64,000 nucleotides of DNA. Origin: Escherichia phage vB_EcoM_G4507. This document shows, piece by piece, positions 2,448 through 37,036 of this stretch. The notes beneath the pieces were generated by a model. The model did no database searches and was not told the origin of the DNA. It saw only the letters and a program-made list of their open reading frames with translations. The stretch is taken from sequence record NC_054919.1. One strand, written 5' to 3'. Positions within the stretch are counted from its first letter, which is position 1, and every line of letters starts with the position of its first letter. The position numbers were made by a program, and so were the translations under genes.

Positions 2448-4264
2448 TATTGGCTCATCCATTCTTTACGAAGGTCAGCATTATCTCCCATGAGCATTTC
2501 AAAAAGCTCTTTCCAGTTCTCAGGAAGTTTAACAACATCATATACTGGGTTTTGAATCATCTCACGATATTCAGATTTTTCCAAAGAGCCAAGTCCCTTA
2601 ATATAACGGATGCTATGTTTAGGTAGAGCATCTTTGGCACTCTCATATTCAGCGACTGTATAAAACCATTCTTGTTTTTTACCGACCTGAGCGATGATTA
2701 CAGGAGTTTTGACAAAGCGAATTCTTCCTTGTTCAAACAGTTCTGGCCAATTACTAAAAAATCCGAGCAGAGAAGGATAAATGCTTCCTAAACCATCATG
2801 GTCAGCATCGGTCATAATAGCAATATTATGATAATTCAAGTTTTCAGCTTTTTCACCAAGAACTAATCCAGTGATTGCGCAAATATCAAATAGTTCTTTG
2901 TTTTTAAGCATATCAGCATATGACATACCCCAACTGTTGAGAACTTTACCACGCAATGGATAACCACCATGAAGTTCTTTATCACGAACATCAATAAGAT
3001 ATCCGATAGCAGAATCACCCTCAGTCAAGAAAAGAGTAGTGTCAGCATCTTTACCACAAAGATTCGCTTTGATATGTTTATGAACCTTAGCTTTAGAAGC
3101 CTTTTTAGCTGCTTTAGTTTCTGCTGCTTTTTCTGCTGCCAATTTACGTGCTAAAGCAGCTTCAATAATCGGCATTAAAATTGCTTCATTATTTAGAATA
3201 GCGCGTGAAATCTTTTTAGCATCAAGTTGAATATGACTACGAATTTCACCAAAAGGAGAAGTAAGTCGTTCTTTAGTTTGAGAATCAAATCGCATGTTTT
3301 TCATATCACGGACAAACATAACGATAGTCAAACATTCTTTGACACGCGCTTTAGTTACATCAATTTTGAACTTACGTTTGATTTGTGGAATAAGGTCTTC
3401 ACAAATATCATCCATAACACAGTCAATGTGATGGCCACCATTCTTAGTGTGAATGTTATTCACATAAGTTAATTGACGAAAACCATCCGGTGAACGACCA
3501 ACCGCAATAGAACAATTTTCTTGTTCTTGAACAATAGCATGTTCATCATACTGTCGTGCATATTTCTTAAAATTGCCCTGAACCTTTTTACCATTAAAGG
3601 TAAATTGAATATCAGGATAAACAACAGCAAGTGTCTGGAGACGATCTAGTGTAATGTCAAGATAAACTTGAGACAGCTCATTAGTTTCAAATGACATAAA
3701 ATCTGGAATGAAAGTAACACGAGTTCCTTTCCATTTTCCAGGAATAGTTTCCCATGATTTATTTTCCATGCCATTTGAACAACGAACTACAATATTATTT
3801 TGACCATCGCCAGTTTCACCGACAAACATCACAGAAAAAATGTTAGTTAAACTAGAACCAACACCATTCATACCACCGGTGACACGTTCTTTATCATCAC
3901 CAAAGTTACCACCTGCTTTTGGAATAGTCCATGCAGCAACAGGACCAGGAATTTCTTCACCGGTAGGTGTTTTAACCATCGCCTGCGGAATACCACGACC
4001 GTTATCTTCAACTGTTACTTGATTGTTTTTAATAGTAACATTAATTTTATTTGCGAATTTAAACTTAGTACGAATACCTTCATCTACTGAGTTATCGATA
4101 ATTTCATCAATAAGCTTAACAAGACCAGGTACATACTGAACACTTTCCCATTTACCAAACAGAAAGCGCTCATGCATTTCATTAGCAGAAGAGCCAATGT
4201 ACATGCCACTACGCTTTTTGATATGTTCAATATCGCTCAGAATTTTAATTTCATTCTTAATCAT
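2447..4264 (-). CDS. 39: DNA topoisomerase II large subunit (GyrB-like ATPase plus C-terminal part that is separate gene 60 in T4)
   Basis: 605 aa from ATG (track ORF begins one codon earlier at GTG); TOPRIM-type motifs EGDSA and IMTDADHDG; GAGGA RBS. Confidence 0.93.
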   Translation of the reverse strand: MIKNEIKILSDIEHIKKRSGMYIGSSANEMHERFLFGKWESVQYVPGLVKLIDEIIDNSVDEGIRTKFKFANKINVTIKNNQVTVEDNGRGIPQAMVKTPTGEEIPGPVAAWTIPKAGGNFGDDKERVTGGMNGVGSSLTNIFSVMFVGETGDGQNNIVVRCSNGMENKSWETIPGKWKGTRVTFIPDFMSFETNELSQVYLDITLDRLQTLAVVYPDIQFTFNGKKVQGNFKKYARQYDEHAIVQEQENCSIAVGRSPDGFRQLTYVNNIHTKNGGHHIDCVMDDICEDLIPQIKRKFKIDVTKARVKECLTIVMFVRDMKNMRFDSQTKERLTSPFGEIRSHIQLDAKKISRAILNNEAILMPIIEAALARKLAAEKAAETKAAKKASKAKVHKHIKANLCGKDADTTLFLTEGDSAIGYLIDVRDKELHGGYPLRGKVLNSWGMSYADMLKNKELFDICAITGLVLGEKAENLNYHNIAIMTDADHDGLGSIYPSLLGFFSNWPELFEQGRIRFVKTPVIIAQVGKKQEWFYTVAEYESAKDALPKHSIRYIKGLGSLEKSEYREMIQNPVYDVVKLPENWKELFEMLMGDNADLRKEWMSQ

Positions 4265-15687: not shown

Positions 15688-15884
15688 TTTGAATGCTCTA
15701 TAATTAATTTTAAGGCTTCTTCGCTGACAAAAATTTCGTCAGGACCTTCTTCTATAACCCAATCAACCATACGAAGTTGATTAGTTAAGAGCTCACATAC
15801 GAGCTCCTTGTTATAATCTTTAAATAGCTGGTCAATACGTTTCTTATGGGCTTTCTTAAGCTGACGCTTATTTAAACGAGCCAT
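15684..15884 (-). CDS. hypothetical protein
   Basis: 66-aa ORF, overlaps flanking genes by 1-4 nt. Confidence 0.5.
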   Translation of the reverse strand: MARLNKRQLKKAHKKRIDQLFKDYNKELVCELLTNQLRMVDWVIEEGPDEIFVSEEALKLIIEHSK

Positions 15885-16402
15885 TAATAACCTCGGTCTT
15901 GACGAGCGAAGTTTTCAGCATTTTTCAGGTAATAAAGTTTAAAGATTTCTTCAGCTGACATTCCAAGAGCAATAAATTTATTCATGAAAAAGTGAAATTG
16001 GTCAATCAGTTCAAATTTAATTTCAAGCTGATCTTCGGGAGATAAATCTTGAATTTTCTTGGATTGCATTTCAGAATAACGTTTCTTCCAAGGTTTCCAT
16101 ACAGCAGAAGCTTCTTTTTCACCATTACTCATACCACCAAGAGAAGTATATAGTTCGCGAGTTTCATCTGCGATATAATCGTCTTGGTTTCGCAACCAAG
16201 CAAGAACTTCTCCTGCGGTTTCAAGTGAATCAGGATGACGATTTGTTTCTGGTTTATCATTAGCCAAACGAATCTGTAAATGCCGCTGCATATCAAGCAT
16301 AACCTGCAGTGGGTCAATATTGTGCATAATATTCTCAGCATATGCACGATTTGCTTTATCAACACCTTCGATCAAATGAGCACATTCATTAAAGTAAGCC
16401 AT
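15884..16402 (-). CDS. 56: dCTP pyrophosphatase (dCTPase/dUTPase)
   Basis: Track ORF extended upstream; ATG at MAYFNECAHLIEGVDKA preceded by AAAGGA RBS gives ~172 aa, matching T4 gp56. Confidence 0.88.
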   Translation of the reverse strand: MAYFNECAHLIEGVDKANRAYAENIMHNIDPLQVMLDMQRHLQIRLANDKPETNRHPDSLETAGEVLAWLRNQDDYIADETRELYTSLGGMSNGEKEASAVWKPWKKRYSEMQSKKIQDLSPEDQLEIKFELIDQFHFFMNKFIALGMSAEEIFKLYYLKNAENFARQDRGY

Positions 16403-16473
16403 TATTTTTCCTTTCAATTCATGGGTTAGTAGATTAATTATACAATAAATATATAAAGCAATAAGGAGGACAT

Positions 16474-16674
16474 ATGGTACAAAAATTAATGGCACTTGTT
16501 AATGCCATAAAAGGTAATAAAAAACGTATAGCTTTTACTATTTCTGCTATTGTAGGAATTTTACTCTGGAACTTTATTCTATCACCTGTTGCAATTGCGC
16601 ATGGTATTAATATTCCAGTAGTTACTCTTGATACATTTGTAGATTTAGCATTTGCTTTAGTTGGGTTGATTTAA
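16474..16674 (+). CDS. small hydrophobic membrane protein (two predicted TM segments)
   Basis: 66-aa plus-strand ORF with TAAGGAGG RBS 4-5 nt before ATG; sits in 268-nt gap between 56 and 61. Confidence 0.5.
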   Translation: MVQKLMALVNAIKGNKKRIAFTISAIVGILLWNFILSPVAIAHGINIPVVTLDTFVDLAFALVGLI

Positions 16675-17699
16675 ATCTTAGCATATTTAGATAGCCGCAT
16701 TTTAGCCATCAACCCCTGGGCAATATTATTTTTCATATATTCCATAATTTGTTCAGGGGTTGCACCTTCCTTTCTAATCATATCATTGACATCTTTTGAT
16801 TTCCAGGGAGATTTATCCCAAAACATAACCCTTTCTCCTGCATCAACTAATTTAGTCATTCGTTTGATAGTGTCAGGGTGACGAGGTTCATTATCTAAAA
16901 CCCACACTCGTCTATCTTTAAATGGAACAACTTCTAGGTCTAATTGACCACCTGTAATAGCTATACCATTTTCAATAAAAAGTGAATCTATAGGTCCTTC
17001 TAGAACATATACATCACCATCTTTAACTCGTTCAACACCGTAAATTTTTGTTGCCTCAGGATAAGCTTTAATGGTGATATATTTTTGAGGAGCATCTTTC
17101 TTTAATGCACGTCCTTGAAAAGACTCAGCTTTTCCATTAGCATTATAAATTGGAATAACAAGACGAGGCTCAGAAATTTCCTTTTTGTATGTTCCCGGTG
17201 CTATGCTATTAACTAATTTAGGCCATTCGGTTGTAAACCAAAGATATTTCCATTTATCCTTTGGAATACAACGAGCTTTTACATATTTTATAATTGGATG
17301 GTCTTCCGCCAGTTTATCTAATCTAACACATGACGGAAGAGATTTAATTATTTTCTTCTCAGGTTGCTTAGGAAGTTCTTTAGGTTTTTCTACTGGACGA
17401 CTTTTACCTTTTTCTTTTCTTATTTCAAAGATATACTCACGATATAAATCAGGTTCAAACTCCTTTAAATATATTCCGATTGGTGCATGATAATTACAGT
17501 TATAACAATGAATATTTCCTTCATTATTATCACCATAATACCATCCACGAGCTTTATTCTGGTCGGTTTTTGAATCTCCACAAACAGGACATCTAAACCG
17601 CAATTTAAAAGTTGAACTATTATTTACTTGTGTGAATTTAGGTAAATGAGCCAATGCACGATACGCAAACTCATTATCAATCCAAGGTATTGATGACAT
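16671..17699 (-). CDS. 61: DNA primase
   Basis: 342 aa; zinc-ribbon CPVCGDS...CYNC and TOPRIM-like core; matches T4 gp61. Confidence 0.93.
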   Translation of the reverse strand: MSSIPWIDNEFAYRALAHLPKFTQVNNSSTFKLRFRCPVCGDSKTDQNKARGWYYGDNNEGNIHCYNCNYHAPIGIYLKEFEPDLYREYIFEIRKEKGKSRPVEKPKELPKQPEKKIIKSLPSCVRLDKLAEDHPIIKYVKARCIPKDKWKYLWFTTEWPKLVNSIAPGTYKKEISEPRLVIPIYNANGKAESFQGRALKKDAPQKYITIKAYPEATKIYGVERVKDGDVYVLEGPIDSLFIENGIAITGGQLDLEVVPFKDRRVWVLDNEPRHPDTIKRMTKLVDAGERVMFWDKSPWKSKDVNDMIRKEGATPEQIMEYMKNNIAQGLMAKMRLSKYAKI

Positions 17700-21150: not shown

Positions 21151-21513
21151 TTAAAAGAATTTAAATTTTTTCTTTGACCTTTTATTAAATGCATCTTGTA
21201 GTTGCATTGTAATACATTTTTCTACATGAGGAGCTAACTCAGCTTTTCTTTCTTGGTCAAGAACAGCAAAGTCCATTACAACCTTTCCATCAACCCAATC
21301 TAATTTTGTCACATACACAATGTGTGTAGAACCATCTTCTAGTTTAATGACAATCTCCTGGATAACATTTTCCATGGCAGATTTAATTATCTTAAGAGAT
21401 TCATTAAAAAGACGTTCTTTTCTTTCTTCTTCCCCCTCTTCGGAGGGGGATTCATCGATAATTTCTAGATCTAAATCTAAATCATCTTTATTCATTAAAT
21501 TCTTCCATATCAC
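21151..21513 (-). CDS. hypothetical acidic protein at gene 40 position
   Basis: 120-aa ORF between uvsX and 41. Confidence 0.55.
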   Translation of the reverse strand: MIWKNLMNKDDLDLDLEIIDESPSEEGEEERKERLFNESLKIIKSAMENVIQEIVIKLEDGSTHIVYVTKLDWVDGKVVMDFAVLDQERKAELAPHVEKCITMQLQDAFNKRSKKKFKFF

Positions 21514-22669
21514 TTAACTGCTCGAGGTCAATTTCTAAATCAGCAGCTGATTTACTTTTACTTTCTGGAGATTTAAATTTTTCAACCTTTGAGTTAATCA
21601 ATTCATCAACTTCAGCTTCAACAATTTCATTACTATCAATAGCACCTAACTGATAAGCGCGTTTAATAGCATCTCGGAATGGTTGATGCTTAAATAAAGG
21701 ACCCCAGAATGTAGTGCAGTTAGTATCTTTTGCACGCCAAGATTTTTCTTCGCGAATCATCTCGCCGGTTTCTTCGTCAAGAAATTCACGAGCATACCAA
21801 CCATTTTTAGGTTTTACTACAAATCCTAATTCTAGAGCCATATCTAACAATCCAGAATAAGGATCGATACCCCCGTCAAATTTAACATCAATAAAGAATT
21901 TACTTTTTTCTTTAACGGTACGAGATTTTTCTACATTTAGAACAAATTGATACCCCTGAAGATCAGAACCATCTTTAATCTGACGCTTACCGATAATGAA
22001 TACAGTATCAGCCGAATACATTACGCCTGTACCGCCTGTCATCACGGTTTTACTAAACATTTCAATTGTTTCAATTGTATGGTTAACCGCAACGCATGGA
22101 ATGTTTTTAATGCTAAAGTAAGGAGTAACAATACGGAATAATGACTTCAGTGATTTAGCACGAGTCATATCTGCCACAGATTTTTCATTTAAGGCATCTT
22201 CCGTTTCTTTCTTAGAAGCCATATTACCAATTGAGTCGATGAATACAATAACCTTTTCACCACGCTCAATAGCTTCAAGCTGGTTCACCATATCAATTTT
22301 CAGCTGTTCAACTGACTGAATCGGCGTATGAATTACTCGTTCCGGGTCAACTCCCATGGATCGCAAATAAGCTGGAGTAATACCAAATTCACTATCATAG
22401 AATAGACAAACCGCGTCAGGATATTTGTTCAAATATGCCGCAACCATAGTCAAAGACATATTTGATTTAAAGTGTTTAGAAGGCCCTGCGAAAATAGTTA
22501 AACCAGACTGCATACCGCCATCAATCGCACCAGAAATAGCAATATTAAGCATTGGGATTTTTGTACGGATTACATCCTTTTCATTAAAGAATTTAGATGT
22601 AGTCAGTTCAGCAGTCATTTTAGAAGTGGAAGCTTTAATCAAACGGGATTTTAAATCTGCGATAGACAT
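21488..22669 (-). CDS. uvsX: RecA-like recombinase UvsX
   Basis: 393 aa; Walker A GPSKHFKS; near-identical to T4 UvsX. Confidence 0.95.
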   Translation of the reverse strand: MSIADLKSRLIKASTSKMTAELTTSKFFNEKDVIRTKIPMLNIAISGAIDGGMQSGLTIFAGPSKHFKSNMSLTMVAAYLNKYPDAVCLFYDSEFGITPAYLRSMGVDPERVIHTPIQSVEQLKIDMVNQLEAIERGEKVIVFIDSIGNMASKKETEDALNEKSVADMTRAKSLKSLFRIVTPYFSIKNIPCVAVNHTIETIEMFSKTVMTGGTGVMYSADTVFIIGKRQIKDGSDLQGYQFVLNVEKSRTVKEKSKFFIDVKFDGGIDPYSGLLDMALELGFVVKPKNGWYAREFLDEETGEMIREEKSWRAKDTNCTTFWGPLFKHQPFRDAIKRAYQLGAIDSNEIVEAEVDELINSKVEKFKSPESKSKSAADLEIDLEQLSDMEEFNE

Positions 22670-22746
22670 TCATTTTTTCCATAGGCATCATTATATTTTC
22701 CTCACTGGTTAAAGATAAAGTAATTATAACACAATAAATTTAGGCA

Positions 22747-23595
22747 TTAATCAACTGCTATCGGATGAATAGCATTAAACTTATGAAATGCTTCTGATTT
22801 TTCTTTACGTGAAACACACATGCGAAGAACCTTTAATGGCTCATCTTCTTCACCCAACGATTTTCGTTTTTCAATATTCGATGTTTTCCAACGAGCTTGT
22901 TCTGGAAACTCTCTATTGATTTGCTCAAGCGCTCTATTATGTTTAGAATTACTACGAATTGAACTGCACCCGCCAGGAGCTTGTGCTTTTCCAGATACAA
23001 CCAGATATTTGAACAAGGCCAAATGCGGATAACCTTGATTAATTAAATTGAGAAATGCATACATATCTTCGCACAAATCAATTTTTCCATACCCAATTTT
23101 TTCTGTCGTAAGTTTTCCGAGGTCATACCATGTATTCGTGAATCCATATGAATTTTCACGATAATTACCCCAAGATGAAGTAATTTTAAAAATAGGTAGA
23201 CGAGCATGACCATGATAATACCCGCAATCCATGGCATCCTCAACATATTGAATCAATTCATAGAACTGTTCACGAGTTAATTGATTAATTTTATCTACAC
23301 AACGACGATCATCTCTTTTTCGCATTGAACTCATACGAATAGTAGTATCATCGTCAATCATCCAGATTCGTTGACCTGCATACATATCAGTAATTGCTTT
23401 ACGAGTACCGGCAATTCCGTTTACATCATCAGGAATAGTTATAATTTTAGCTCTAGACCCATAAGCGTCATGATAAGCTTTTTCTTCATGTTCACGCACT
23501 ACAATATGGGGTTCATAATCAGTCGGAAACATATCAAGGGCAGAAACTGCCCCGACACGCTGATAACTTGGAATTACGAATTGAATCATTTCCAC
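22747..23595 (-). CDS. GT-A-like glycosyltransferase at the beta-gt locus
   Basis: 282 aa; DXD-type motif IWMIDDDTTI; between uvsX and 42. Confidence 0.65.
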   Translation of the reverse strand: MEMIQFVIPSYQRVGAVSALDMFPTDYEPHIVVREHEEKAYHDAYGSRAKIITIPDDVNGIAGTRKAITDMYAGQRIWMIDDDTTIRMSSMRKRDDRRCVDKINQLTREQFYELIQYVEDAMDCGYYHGHARLPIFKITSSWGNYRENSYGFTNTWYDLGKLTTEKIGYGKIDLCEDMYAFLNLINQGYPHLALFKYLVVSGKAQAPGGCSSIRSNSKHNRALEQINREFPEQARWKTSNIEKRKSLGEEDEPLKVLRMCVSRKEKSEAFHKFNAIHPIAVD

Positions 23596-24326
23596 TCACC
23601 GTTATAATCTTTTTTCACAATATGAGTTTCGCCAGTATTCCACCAATGATCAACCAAGTAAAAATGACGAGAATATACATGAAGACTTCCAACATTCCAT
23701 ATAATAGAACCTGCTTTATACTGACGAGTTGAATCGCCTGCATTCAAATCAGATACTAATTTATCTAATACGTATTTTTGCCATGCATAATCATTACGGA
23801 ATCCGAAGACCACGTCATTTGAGCGCATGCTTACTACTGCATTGACTTTCTTATCACGAATCAGATACTGTACTGTATTCGTACACATGAAATCTGACAT
23901 ACCATCTTTATTGTAGTCAAATTGCATGGATGGACGAGTATAAATCATGATACCACGTCGAGAATCAGGATTTTGACCAAGTTCAGCTAAACACATATCA
24001 TACTGGGCATAGTTATCTTCTGACCAAATAGCCCAACCATAATTCGAGTTAATTTCGCCTTTAGAAGATGCTACTTGTTGCCAAATCTTCGGTGTTTCAC
24101 CCGGAATATCTTTAACGAACAAGCTCTTAGATTTATACCATTCAAGTTCACGCTGAATGTATTCATCATTAAGAGCGCCAAAAATAAACGGTTCATCTGC
24201 TACAAATGATGCGCCAATAATTTCAATAGTTTTAACACCAGTTTTATCAACTACGAAATCTTTTTCTTTTAATGCAAGCCCCAAATGAAGACGGATTTCT
24301 TCAACTGTCATAGAGTCACTAATCAT
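23586..24326 (-). CDS. 42: dCMP hydroxymethylase
   Basis: 246 aa; thymidylate-synthase-like fold; matches T4 gp42. Confidence 0.93.
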   Translation of the reverse strand: MISDSMTVEEIRLHLGLALKEKDFVVDKTGVKTIEIIGASFVADEPFIFGALNDEYIQRELEWYKSKSLFVKDIPGETPKIWQQVASSKGEINSNYGWAIWSEDNYAQYDMCLAELGQNPDSRRGIMIYTRPSMQFDYNKDGMSDFMCTNTVQYLIRDKKVNAVVSMRSNDVVFGFRNDYAWQKYVLDKLVSDLNAGDSTRQYKAGSIIWNVGSLHVYSRHFYLVDHWWNTGETHIVKKDYNGEWK

Positions 24327-24476
24327 TTAAACCTCAATTGATACATTCATATTTAACTTGTAACAGTAATAAGCTCCAACCTAAAATAATAGTTGGAATC
24401 ATAAGAGGAACCGTTACACTATAGTATATACTTATAATCATCAAGATTAAAAGCAACACTGCTATAATTTTGCTTT

Positions 24477-24728
24477 TCATTCCTTCTCTCTGATGATAAT
24501 TACTTGATTTGGTTGTGCAGACTTTTTAGTTTCACCAGCAATTGACCAAATAAATGTAATAAACCAACCAATAATTGACCAGTTAAACAGTAAAGATGTG
24601 AAAAAGATTCCTACTGTCGATTTTGACCCACGCATCAAGGCAATAAACCATGGAAGCATGTATATAATAATAGCCAACACACCTGAAACTAAAACCATAA
24701 AAATTGAACCTGCTACTAAAGTTTCCAT
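24477..24728 (-). CDS. imm: superinfection immunity membrane protein Imm
   Basis: 83 aa, two TM segments; matches T4 Imm. Confidence 0.9.
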   Translation of the reverse strand: METLVAGSIFMVLVSGVLAIIIYMLPWFIALMRGSKSTVGIFFTSLLFNWSIIGWFITFIWSIAGETKKSAQPNQVIIIREKE

Positions 24729-35575: not shown

Positions 35576-36778
35576 TTATTTTGTAATAATGTCAAACTGT
35601 TCTTTAAAGCAGAAGCTTGAATCTTGGTGCTGATATAAAAATTCATATGCTTTTTCTCGCTCACGGTCATAAAGAGCTCGGTCAGATGACAGTTCTTTAA
35701 TACGTTCAAATGTTGATTCCATATCATTTTCATCAAACCAAATGATACCGCTATCATGCGAGGTCAAAGGAGTATTATCAACACGGAATTTTAAATTTTC
35801 GCCAGTAGATTTCCAAAATACCGGAATTGTTCCACATGCACCAAGCTCGAGATGAGTATATTCTAAAGAACGTTGTAGATATTTTTTGTCCAACTTACTC
35901 AGCTGATAACCAAATCCGGATTTACTCATGCGTTCAAGCATTTCGCTATTTACATAACGGTCAAGAATTTGCGTTGGCAAATTAGGAGCAATTTTAATTT
36001 GGTCTACTTGATGAAGACGATAATACTCGTATGGAATTCCTTTTTCTTTAATAGGAATGAACGCTGGAGAACGTTCCAGACCTTCCATAATAGTACTTAG
36101 TCCTGCAGGTTTAAGATGTTTTTCATGAAAATCAAACATCTGATAAAAGCCTTTCCATGTAGTCGTACGACCAATCCAACGGTTGATATTCATGTTAATT
36201 TCAGAAACATCTTTCCAGTAGGTTGACCGAACCTTCGCAATATCCATAGGAGGCTGAAAGTTATATACGGTCGGCGCTTCTTCAATATCATCAAACAGAG
36301 AAACTGTTTCTGGATACCATTCTTTCATCAAAACTTTATTAAAGTCACCATTATCAGAATGGCTAAAAATAACATCAGCTCGACGAACAGTTTCTTCTAA
36401 TCCCAAATTTCGGCGCAAAGAAAGAGAAGAATGGTCATGTTGATAAACTACAACACGAACCGAAGGTTTAATGTTATCAATAATTTTTTTATAGTTATTA
36501 ATAGTGTCTTCTTCAACCGAAGTAGCAGGAACTGAATTAATAATTAGAATATCACAATCATTTACCAGCTTAAGTGTTTTATCATATTCTTTTGCCAATA
36601 AAACCGGAATTGAAAATGATTTATAATCATGCGCGCAATTACGAGTAAATGATTTATCTTTAGCATAAACCAAAGTTACTTCATGACCATTTTTAATAAA
36701 CCAATCACGTTGCTCGAGTGAGAATTTTGTTACACCACAACCTTCAAGACCTCGAGCCATAAAAATACATACTTTCAT
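35576..36778 (-). CDS. a-gt: DNA alpha-glucosyltransferase
   Basis: 400 aa, CIFMARGLEGCGVTKFSLEQRDWFIKNGHEVTLVYAKDKSF matches T4 alpha-gt. Confidence 0.93.
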   Translation of the reverse strand: MKVCIFMARGLEGCGVTKFSLEQRDWFIKNGHEVTLVYAKDKSFTRNCAHDYKSFSIPVLLAKEYDKTLKLVNDCDILIINSVPATSVEEDTINNYKKIIDNIKPSVRVVVYQHDHSSLSLRRNLGLEETVRRADVIFSHSDNGDFNKVLMKEWYPETVSLFDDIEEAPTVYNFQPPMDIAKVRSTYWKDVSEINMNINRWIGRTTTWKGFYQMFDFHEKHLKPAGLSTIMEGLERSPAFIPIKEKGIPYEYYRLHQVDQIKIAPNLPTQILDRYVNSEMLERMSKSGFGYQLSKLDKKYLQRSLEYTHLELGACGTIPVFWKSTGENLKFRVDNTPLTSHDSGIIWFDENDMESTFERIKELSSDRALYDREREKAYEFLYQHQDSSFCFKEQFDIITK

Positions 36779-36844
36779 TTAATATCCTCTTTGTTTTGGT
36801 TTATTTTACCAAAAATTTATAAAGCAATATAGGAGCCGAAGCTC

Positions 36845-37036
36845 CTATCCACATAATACGCCATACAGAGGCTCGTTAGAACTTTTAAATTTTATGCGCT
36901 TATATTTTATAGTTCCTTCTGCTTTAGCTTTATCATGAGACTCTTTAAAGCGTCTCATCATTTCCTCTTGAGAGGAACGAATTTTATTATAATCTATTTC
37001 AGAAGTCTGGTGTTCATCTTTCATAACTGCCACCAT
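36845..37036 (-). CDS. hypothetical protein
   Basis: 63-aa ORF. Confidence 0.5.
   Translation of the reverse strand: MVAVMKDEHQTSEIDYNKIRSSQEEMMRRFKESHDKAKAEGTIKYKRIKFKSSNEPLYGVLCG

Follow-up and report, generated by a model that had tools for sequence, protein, structure and literature searches.

A beta-alpha glucosyltransferase (ba-gt), which adds a second glucose to already glucosylated hydroxymethylcytosine (hmC), is known from phages T2 and T6, whose DNA differs strongly in its two glucosylated forms. Alpha-glucosyl-hmC accounts for 70% in T2 and 3% in T6, beta-1,6-glucosyl-alpha-glucosyl-hmC (gentiobiosyl-hmC) for 5% in T2 versus 72% in T6, and both phages have about 25% bare hmC and zero beta-glucosyl-hmC (PMC11078745; bioRxiv 10.64898/2026.02.25.707755, both citing Lehman & Pratt 1960, Kornberg et al. 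1961 and Kuno & Lehman 1962 for the compositions). Deletion of ba-gt from T6 leaves DNA with alpha-glucosyl-hmC only, its gentiobiosyl-hmC being lost, and raises the sensitivity of the phage to the alpha-glucosyl-hmC glycosylase Brig1, by which wild-type T6 DNA is not degraded (PMC11078745). The deglucosylase BapA likewise releases no glucose from gentiobiosyl-hmC (bioRxiv 10.64898/2026.02.25.707755), and GmrSD acts against all glucosylated forms (PMC13216743).

A survey of 753 genomes found an alpha-GT paired with a beta-GT in just 6, T4 included, with most GT-encoding phages pairing either an alpha-GT or a beta-GT with a TET-associated glycosyltransferase (TAGT); in Tequatrovirus, the combination of alpha-GT and TAGT is the default, majority arrangement and the alpha plus beta pair of T4 the exception (PMC13216743). 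HPLC/MS of ten Tequatrovirus phages carrying an alpha-GT together with a TAGT syntenic to the T4 beta-GT detected hmdC, alpha-glucosyl-hmdC and alpha-gentiobiosyl-hmdC and no beta-glucosyl form (PMC13390438). In this Durham study, which separates two groups, the phages Solly, TB37, QOTSP, NR1, CP, Some and EH2 showed about one-third hmC and two-thirds gentiobiosyl-hmC, the alpha-glucosyl-hmC of Solly being no more than background; dam is carried by T4 and the EL/BGP/Geo group, and the Solly-type group is without it (PMC13390438).

The slot between gene 42 and uvsX

We analysed a window of 64 kb of Escherichia phage vB_EcoM_G4507 (NC_054919.1), for which an original prediction had placed a 282-aa glycosyltransferase between uvsX and gene 42, where T4 encodes a 351-aa beta-gt. 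The gene order in the window and in T4 agrees with this placement: the order 42, ba-gt, uvsX is common to the window, T2, T6, Solly, CP, EL and Geo, and T4 has 42, b-gt, segA and uvsX (Table 1). The predicted length needs a small correction. The minus-strand open reading frame 22747..23595 is real and gives 282 aa when translated from its first GTG, as in the list of open reading frames. This GTG at 23595 sits within gene 42, and two codons on stands an ATG (23587..23589) sharing bases with the gene 42 TGA in the form ATGA. We dropped the GTG start in view of this overlap and because T2, T6, Solly, CP, EL and Geo are all annotated from the equivalent ATG. On these grounds the true coding sequence is almost certainly 22747..23589, with 280 rather than 282 aa; the same length is annotated for T2, Solly, CP, EL and Geo, with one residue fewer (279 aa) in the T6 RefSeq gene.

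The ATGA overlap suggests co-transcription of ba-gt with gene 42, possibly with translational coupling. In a consensus scan for a promoter or terminator of ba-gt's own, the sites were about as frequent as in shuffled sequence (11 versus 10.1 promoter-like and 2 versus 1.1 terminator-like), and because the counts did not exceed that background we draw no conclusion from them.

The flanks of the gene offer several further observations. The 77-bp spacer from the ba-gt stop to the uvsX start reads ...AATGCCTAAATTTATTGTGTTATAATTAC... and includes an extended -10 element, TGTTATAAT, with a MotA-box-like sequence about 12 bases upstream of it. These elements give the spacer the look of a T4-type middle promoter serving uvsX, a candidate not among the hits of the simple sigma-70 scan. 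A hydrophobic 48-aa open reading frame (MKSKIIAVLLLILMIISIYY...) is located between gene 42 and imm and has 96% identity to a 'Phage protein' of phage EL; it is missing from the T4 annotation of that interval and probably encodes a small membrane protein. Two genes of T4 have no homologue within the 64-kb window, namely segA, which T4 has between uvsX and b-gt, and mobB, which T4 has beside a-gt (the a-gt flank 36779..36900 was compared with T4). T2, T6 and the Durham phages are likewise without segA between uvsX and ba-gt.

Table 1. Features of the ba-gt locus and of its pathway partners in the 64-kb window
Feature	Position	Strand	Remarks
Gene 56, dCTPase/dUTPase	15884..16402	-	172 aa; 98.3% identity to phage EL dCTP pyrophosphatase
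uvsX recombinase, downstream neighbour bounding the slot	21488..22669	-	Pfam T4_UVSX_C, E = 5e-39, and RecA
Spacer, ba-gt stop to uvsX start	22670..22746	-	77 bp; looks like a middle promoter for uvsX
ba-gt (g-gt / TAGT), beta-glucosyl-HMC-alpha-glucosyltransferase	22747..23589	-	280 aa and stop
Asp175 codon, 'CEDMYAF' segment	23065..23067	-	Invariant in 81 homologues; candidate catalytic base
IWMIDDDTTI segment	23338..23367	-	D79-D80-D81 at nt 23347..23355, GT-A 'DXD'-type motif
Arg11 codon (CGT)	23557..23559	-	Invariant in 81 homologues; His in both T2 records
Gene 42, dCMP hydroxymethylase (to hm-dCMP), immediately upstream	23586..24326	-	Pfam Thymidylat_synt; 97.1% identity to T4 gp42
Hydrophobic open reading frame	24334..24480	-	48 aa; between gene 42 and imm
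a-gt, DNA alpha-glucosyltransferase, intact	35576..36778	-	400 aa, no internal stop; tblastn full length

Identity, fold and proposed role of the gene product

Over its full 280 aa, the product is 98.2% identical to the T2 protein and 97.9% identical to that of the T6 RefSeq gene, and is hence the orthologue of the T2/T6 beta-alpha glucosyltransferase, as the predicted T2/T6-type modification pattern had implied. Cloning and sequencing of the T2 and T6 ba-gt genes were reportedly the work of Winkler and Rueger (1993); the enzyme is EC 2.4.1.28. The protein is matched by PHROG 842, 'beta-glucosyl-HMC-alpha-glucosyltransferase', at E = 3e-89 (residues 2-277 of the 282-aa translation). In Pfam, PF20691, TET-associated glycosyltransferase (TAGT), is the sole family matched, at 40 bits against a curated gathering cut-off of 27.5; neither a GT2-type model nor PF09198, the T4 beta-gt family, was among the matches. 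The exact 280-aa sequence is RefSeq YP_010070421.1, beta-glucosyl-HMC-alpha-glucosyltransferase of Escherichia phage vB_EcoM_G4507, and the T2 counterpart in LC348380 is annotated as b-gt: beta-glucosyl-HMC-alpha-glucosyl-transferase. The gene is therefore already known, and the unusualness ascribed to the locus in the original prediction was overrated: the public record already carries the ba-gt name and the arrangement is the majority one in Tequatrovirus.

Homologues are widespread in T4-like phages. A tblastn search recovered them in 687 of 50,697 phage records, about 470 of which, with at least 95% identity, belong to T4-like phages of Escherichia, Shigella, Yersinia, Salmonella and Citrobacter, and about 200, at 60-80% identity, to those of Klebsiella and Enterobacter. 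Among 1.84 billion cluster representatives, 342 relatives were detected at E <=0.001, the close alleles falling in a 485-member cluster. In an alignment of 81 full-length relatives reaching down to ~20% identity, R11, D80, D175 and G207 are invariant, and I6, P7, E35, R63, D79, D81, G186, G206, R212 and P229 are conserved in at least 90%. The DXD-type motif noted at the outset thus belongs to a conserved segment and, judged by this conservation, D79-D80-D81 is the signature motif of the TAGT family. A check by codon showed R11, D79-D81, D175, G206/G207 and R212 all to be intact in the window and the frame to be uninterrupted.

The predicted structure agrees with the original assignment to the GT-A type. 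A confident AlphaFold model of the protein has a single Rossmann-like alpha/beta/alpha domain similar to known GT-A enzymes; its structural matches are GT-A glycosyltransferases only, the 60 best including no GT-B enzyme, and D79-D80-D81 directly follows the strand formed by residues 74-78, as in GT-A enzymes. A phmmer search of PDB sequences for a solved relative returned noise only (E >=1), so the fold assignment draws on the predicted model. In keeping with it, the T6 TAGT modelled with AlphaFold3 has a GT-A fold and is sister to GT2, with alpha-GT and beta-GT being GT-B (PMC13216743, 2026).

We put at about 0.93 the probability that 22747..23589 encodes a T2/T6-type beta-alpha glucosyltransferase (ba-gt, g-gt or TAGT), which would add the second glucose to give gentiobiosyl-hmC. 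This identification draws on orthology, on the slot, on the intact family residues and on the intact alpha-gt, gp42 and gp56, and nothing argues against it; the function is assigned from the literature on orthologues of about 98% identity. The alpha-gt, which the original prediction had rightly taken as intact, is 91.5% identical to that of T4, 99.5% to that of T2, 92% to that of T6 and 100% (amino acid) to that of Solly.

In the pathway that we propose, genes 42 and 56 would together yield phage DNA with hmC replacing C, gene 56 serving to exclude unmodified C. Alpha-gt would then add an alpha-linked glucose to most hmC, creating the acceptor onto which ba-gt, a GT-A enzyme, would transfer a beta-1,6 glucose from UDP-glucose. 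The passage from UDP-alpha-glucose to a beta linkage implies an inverting enzyme. Fold and conservation suggest that D79-D80-D81 would hold the divalent metal and the UDP-sugar, and Asp175 is the likely catalytic base, in view of the inverting chemistry, the GT2-like fold (PMC13216743) and its conservation. As a T4-type beta-gt is absent, the DNA would be expected to have no beta-glucosyl-hmC and to keep some bare hmC. The resulting sugar pattern would alter the range of host defences to which the DNA is exposed: gentiobiosyl-hmC is a poor substrate for Brig1 and for BapA but is still cut by GmrSD-type enzymes. The second beta-linked glucose and the altered sensitivity to glucose-specific defences, both anticipated in the original prediction, are supported by analogy with T6 and near-identical phages (PMC11078745, PMC13390438, PMC13216743, bioRxiv 10.64898/2026.02.25.707755).

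Alleles and the expected extent of di-glucosylation

We next consider how far the DNA of vB_EcoM_G4507 would be di-glucosylated. We compiled a table of 23 full-length ba-gt sequences, and a survey of IMG/VR yielded 5 loci. From the window to T2 there are five substitutions, R11H, H40Y, I101V, K164Q and P251S; the window protein differs from that of Solly at 3 residues and from that of CP at 4. R11H and P251S are private to T2, being present in both T2 records (LC348380, positions 3001-3843 of the stretch compared; AP018813, positions 1283-2125) and absent from the other 22 alleles, so that R11 is found in 22 of the 23 and H11 only in T2. The window carries R11 and P251. H40 occurs in 4 of the 23 alleles, and K164 only in the window allele and its identical database copy.

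The background of the gene is also of the Solly type. The 20-45 kb block of the window is 97.4% identical to phage Some. Neither the Dam DNA adenine methyltransferase (expected near 16400..17500, beside gene 56) nor the restriction-enzyme-like gene adjacent to dam in EL/Geo has a homologue in the 64-kb window (tblastn, E <=1e-3). These two genes mark the intermediate EL/Geo group, and the window is without both, as is the Solly-type group. The Durham phages Solly, CP and Some resemble the window in their ba-gt (near-identical in Solly and CP) and in the absence of dam and of the restriction-enzyme-like gene, the a-gt being that of Solly without a difference. Since the alleles match those of Solly-type phages, R11 and P251 are present and the dam group markers are absent, we expect with moderate confidence a high, T6/Solly-like level of gentiobiosyl-hmC (about two-thirds), with about one-third hmC, rather than the low level of T2. 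By this analogy, the DNA should contain hmC, little alpha-glucosyl-hmC, mainly gentiobiosyl-hmC and no beta-glucosyl-hmC.

One reading of the allele table goes further, and we hold it only tentatively: the state of the ba-gt allele, not its mere presence, might set the extent of di-glucosylation, with R11H making the T2 enzyme hypomorphic and the R11/DDD/P251 allele of the window giving near-complete conversion. If true, the sequence could serve to predict the sugar pattern, and the 60-year-old difference between T2 and T6 would be explained, with the window still an ordinary member. Going by the sequences, R11H may account for the low gentiobiosyl level of T2, a point that concerns T2 and not the window. 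We did not find R11H stated as the cause of the T2/T6 difference in the cited literature on T2/T6 glucosylation, and as a possible cause it is the only mildly new lead from this analysis. A different explanation, that the high activity of T6 is due to DD in place of DDD, is ruled out, as Solly and CP, both with about two-thirds gentiobiosyl-hmC, and the second T6 record have DDD.

The T6 records themselves differ. In NC_054907 (3001-3840 of the stretch compared), ba-gt has lost one Asp of DDD in frame (IWMIDDTTI), leaving 279 aa, and in MH550421 (1138-1980 of the stretch compared) the gene keeps DDD yet is interrupted by a stop at codon 10, and is annotated from Met20 (261 aa). These differing lesions could reflect either mutations particular to the stocks or errors in sequencing. 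They are of consequence since YP_010067197.1, the NC_054907 protein with the one-Asp deletion, served as the TAGT query in PMC13216743, and is presumably also the T6 TAGT sequence modelled there. Both the one-Asp deletion and the codon-10 stop are absent from the window ba-gt.

It is unlikely, in our estimate, that the same enzyme has a weak, T2-like outcome here, with about 70% alpha-glucosyl-hmC and a few per cent gentiobiosyl-hmC, such that the gene would have little bearing on the phenotype. The near identity of the a-gt to that of T2, the marginally closer relationship of the ba-gt to T2 than to T6, the private K164 and the lack of an established cause for T2's low level in the literature on these phages could all be cited in its favor. 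However, the T2-specific R11H, at a position invariant across the 81 homologues, and P251S are absent here, and Solly, with an identical a-gt and a ba-gt only 3 residues away, was measured at about two-thirds gentiobiosyl-hmC and background alpha-glucosyl-hmC. With the high gentiobiosyl level that we favor, T6 and its relatives predict for this phage partial escape from Brig1 and resistance to deglucosylation by BapA, with sensitivity of the GmrSD/BrxU type remaining and about 25-33% bare hmC exposed to hmC-specific defences. Such predictions of the sugar pattern are useful for the choice of therapeutic phages and for host-range prediction. The gene itself matters for annotation: the assignment is correct but ordinary and adds nothing to existing knowledge.

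Comparison with other glycosyltransferases

A TAGT-family enzyme with an acceptor or donor unlike that of T6, acting for instance directly on hmC or with another sugar, is a highly improbable alternative. Specificity does vary in the wider family, as TAGT homologues occur with an alpha-GT, with a beta-GT or alone (PMC13216743), but this variation concerns distant homologues, whereas the present protein has about 98% identity to the T2/T6 enzymes, occupies the slot that they occupy, is accompanied as they are by alpha-gt, and has near-identical counterparts in phages whose DNA carries gentiobiosyl-hmC and no other sugar adduct. Least probable, at a very small chance, is a diverged or degenerate T4 beta-gt or its inactive remnant: the frame holds the syntenic position of T4 beta-gt, but it lacks sequence similarity to that enzyme and has a GT-A model against the GT-B fold of T4 beta-gt (PMC13216743), and it is open over its full length with all invariant family residues intact and is kept at >=95% identity in ~470 phage records.

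The T2/T6-type beta-alpha glucosyltransferase that we identify here shares its slot with T4 beta-gt (GT63, PF09198, GT-B), and would also share with it the dependence on UDP-glucose, the inverting mechanism and the beta linkage made on phage DNA. The two differ in length (280 versus 351 aa), in fold class (GT-A in the model versus GT-B) and, by analogy with T2/T6, in the acceptor, which would be the glucose of alpha-glucosyl-hmC for ba-gt in contrast to the hydroxymethyl group of hmC for T4 beta-gt. The absence of any resemblance in sequence, as originally predicted, is borne out by BLASTP, which aligned only chance fragments (best E = 3.4), and a tblastn search with T4 beta-gt found no T4-type beta-gt in all 64 kb (best E = 1.3); with the GT-A fold of the model, these results exclude a divergent T4 beta-gt. 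The GT2-type inverting GT-A enzymes, such as the beta-1,3-glucosyltransferase AvpGT, TarS/TarP and SpsA, are only 8-15% identical to ba-gt, which differs from them in its predicted acceptor, a sugar on duplex DNA, and in its separate Pfam family (TAGT). Compared with the ba-gt of T2 and T6, finally, the version in the window has R11, the DDD motif, D175 and G207 intact, and no functional difference is implied.
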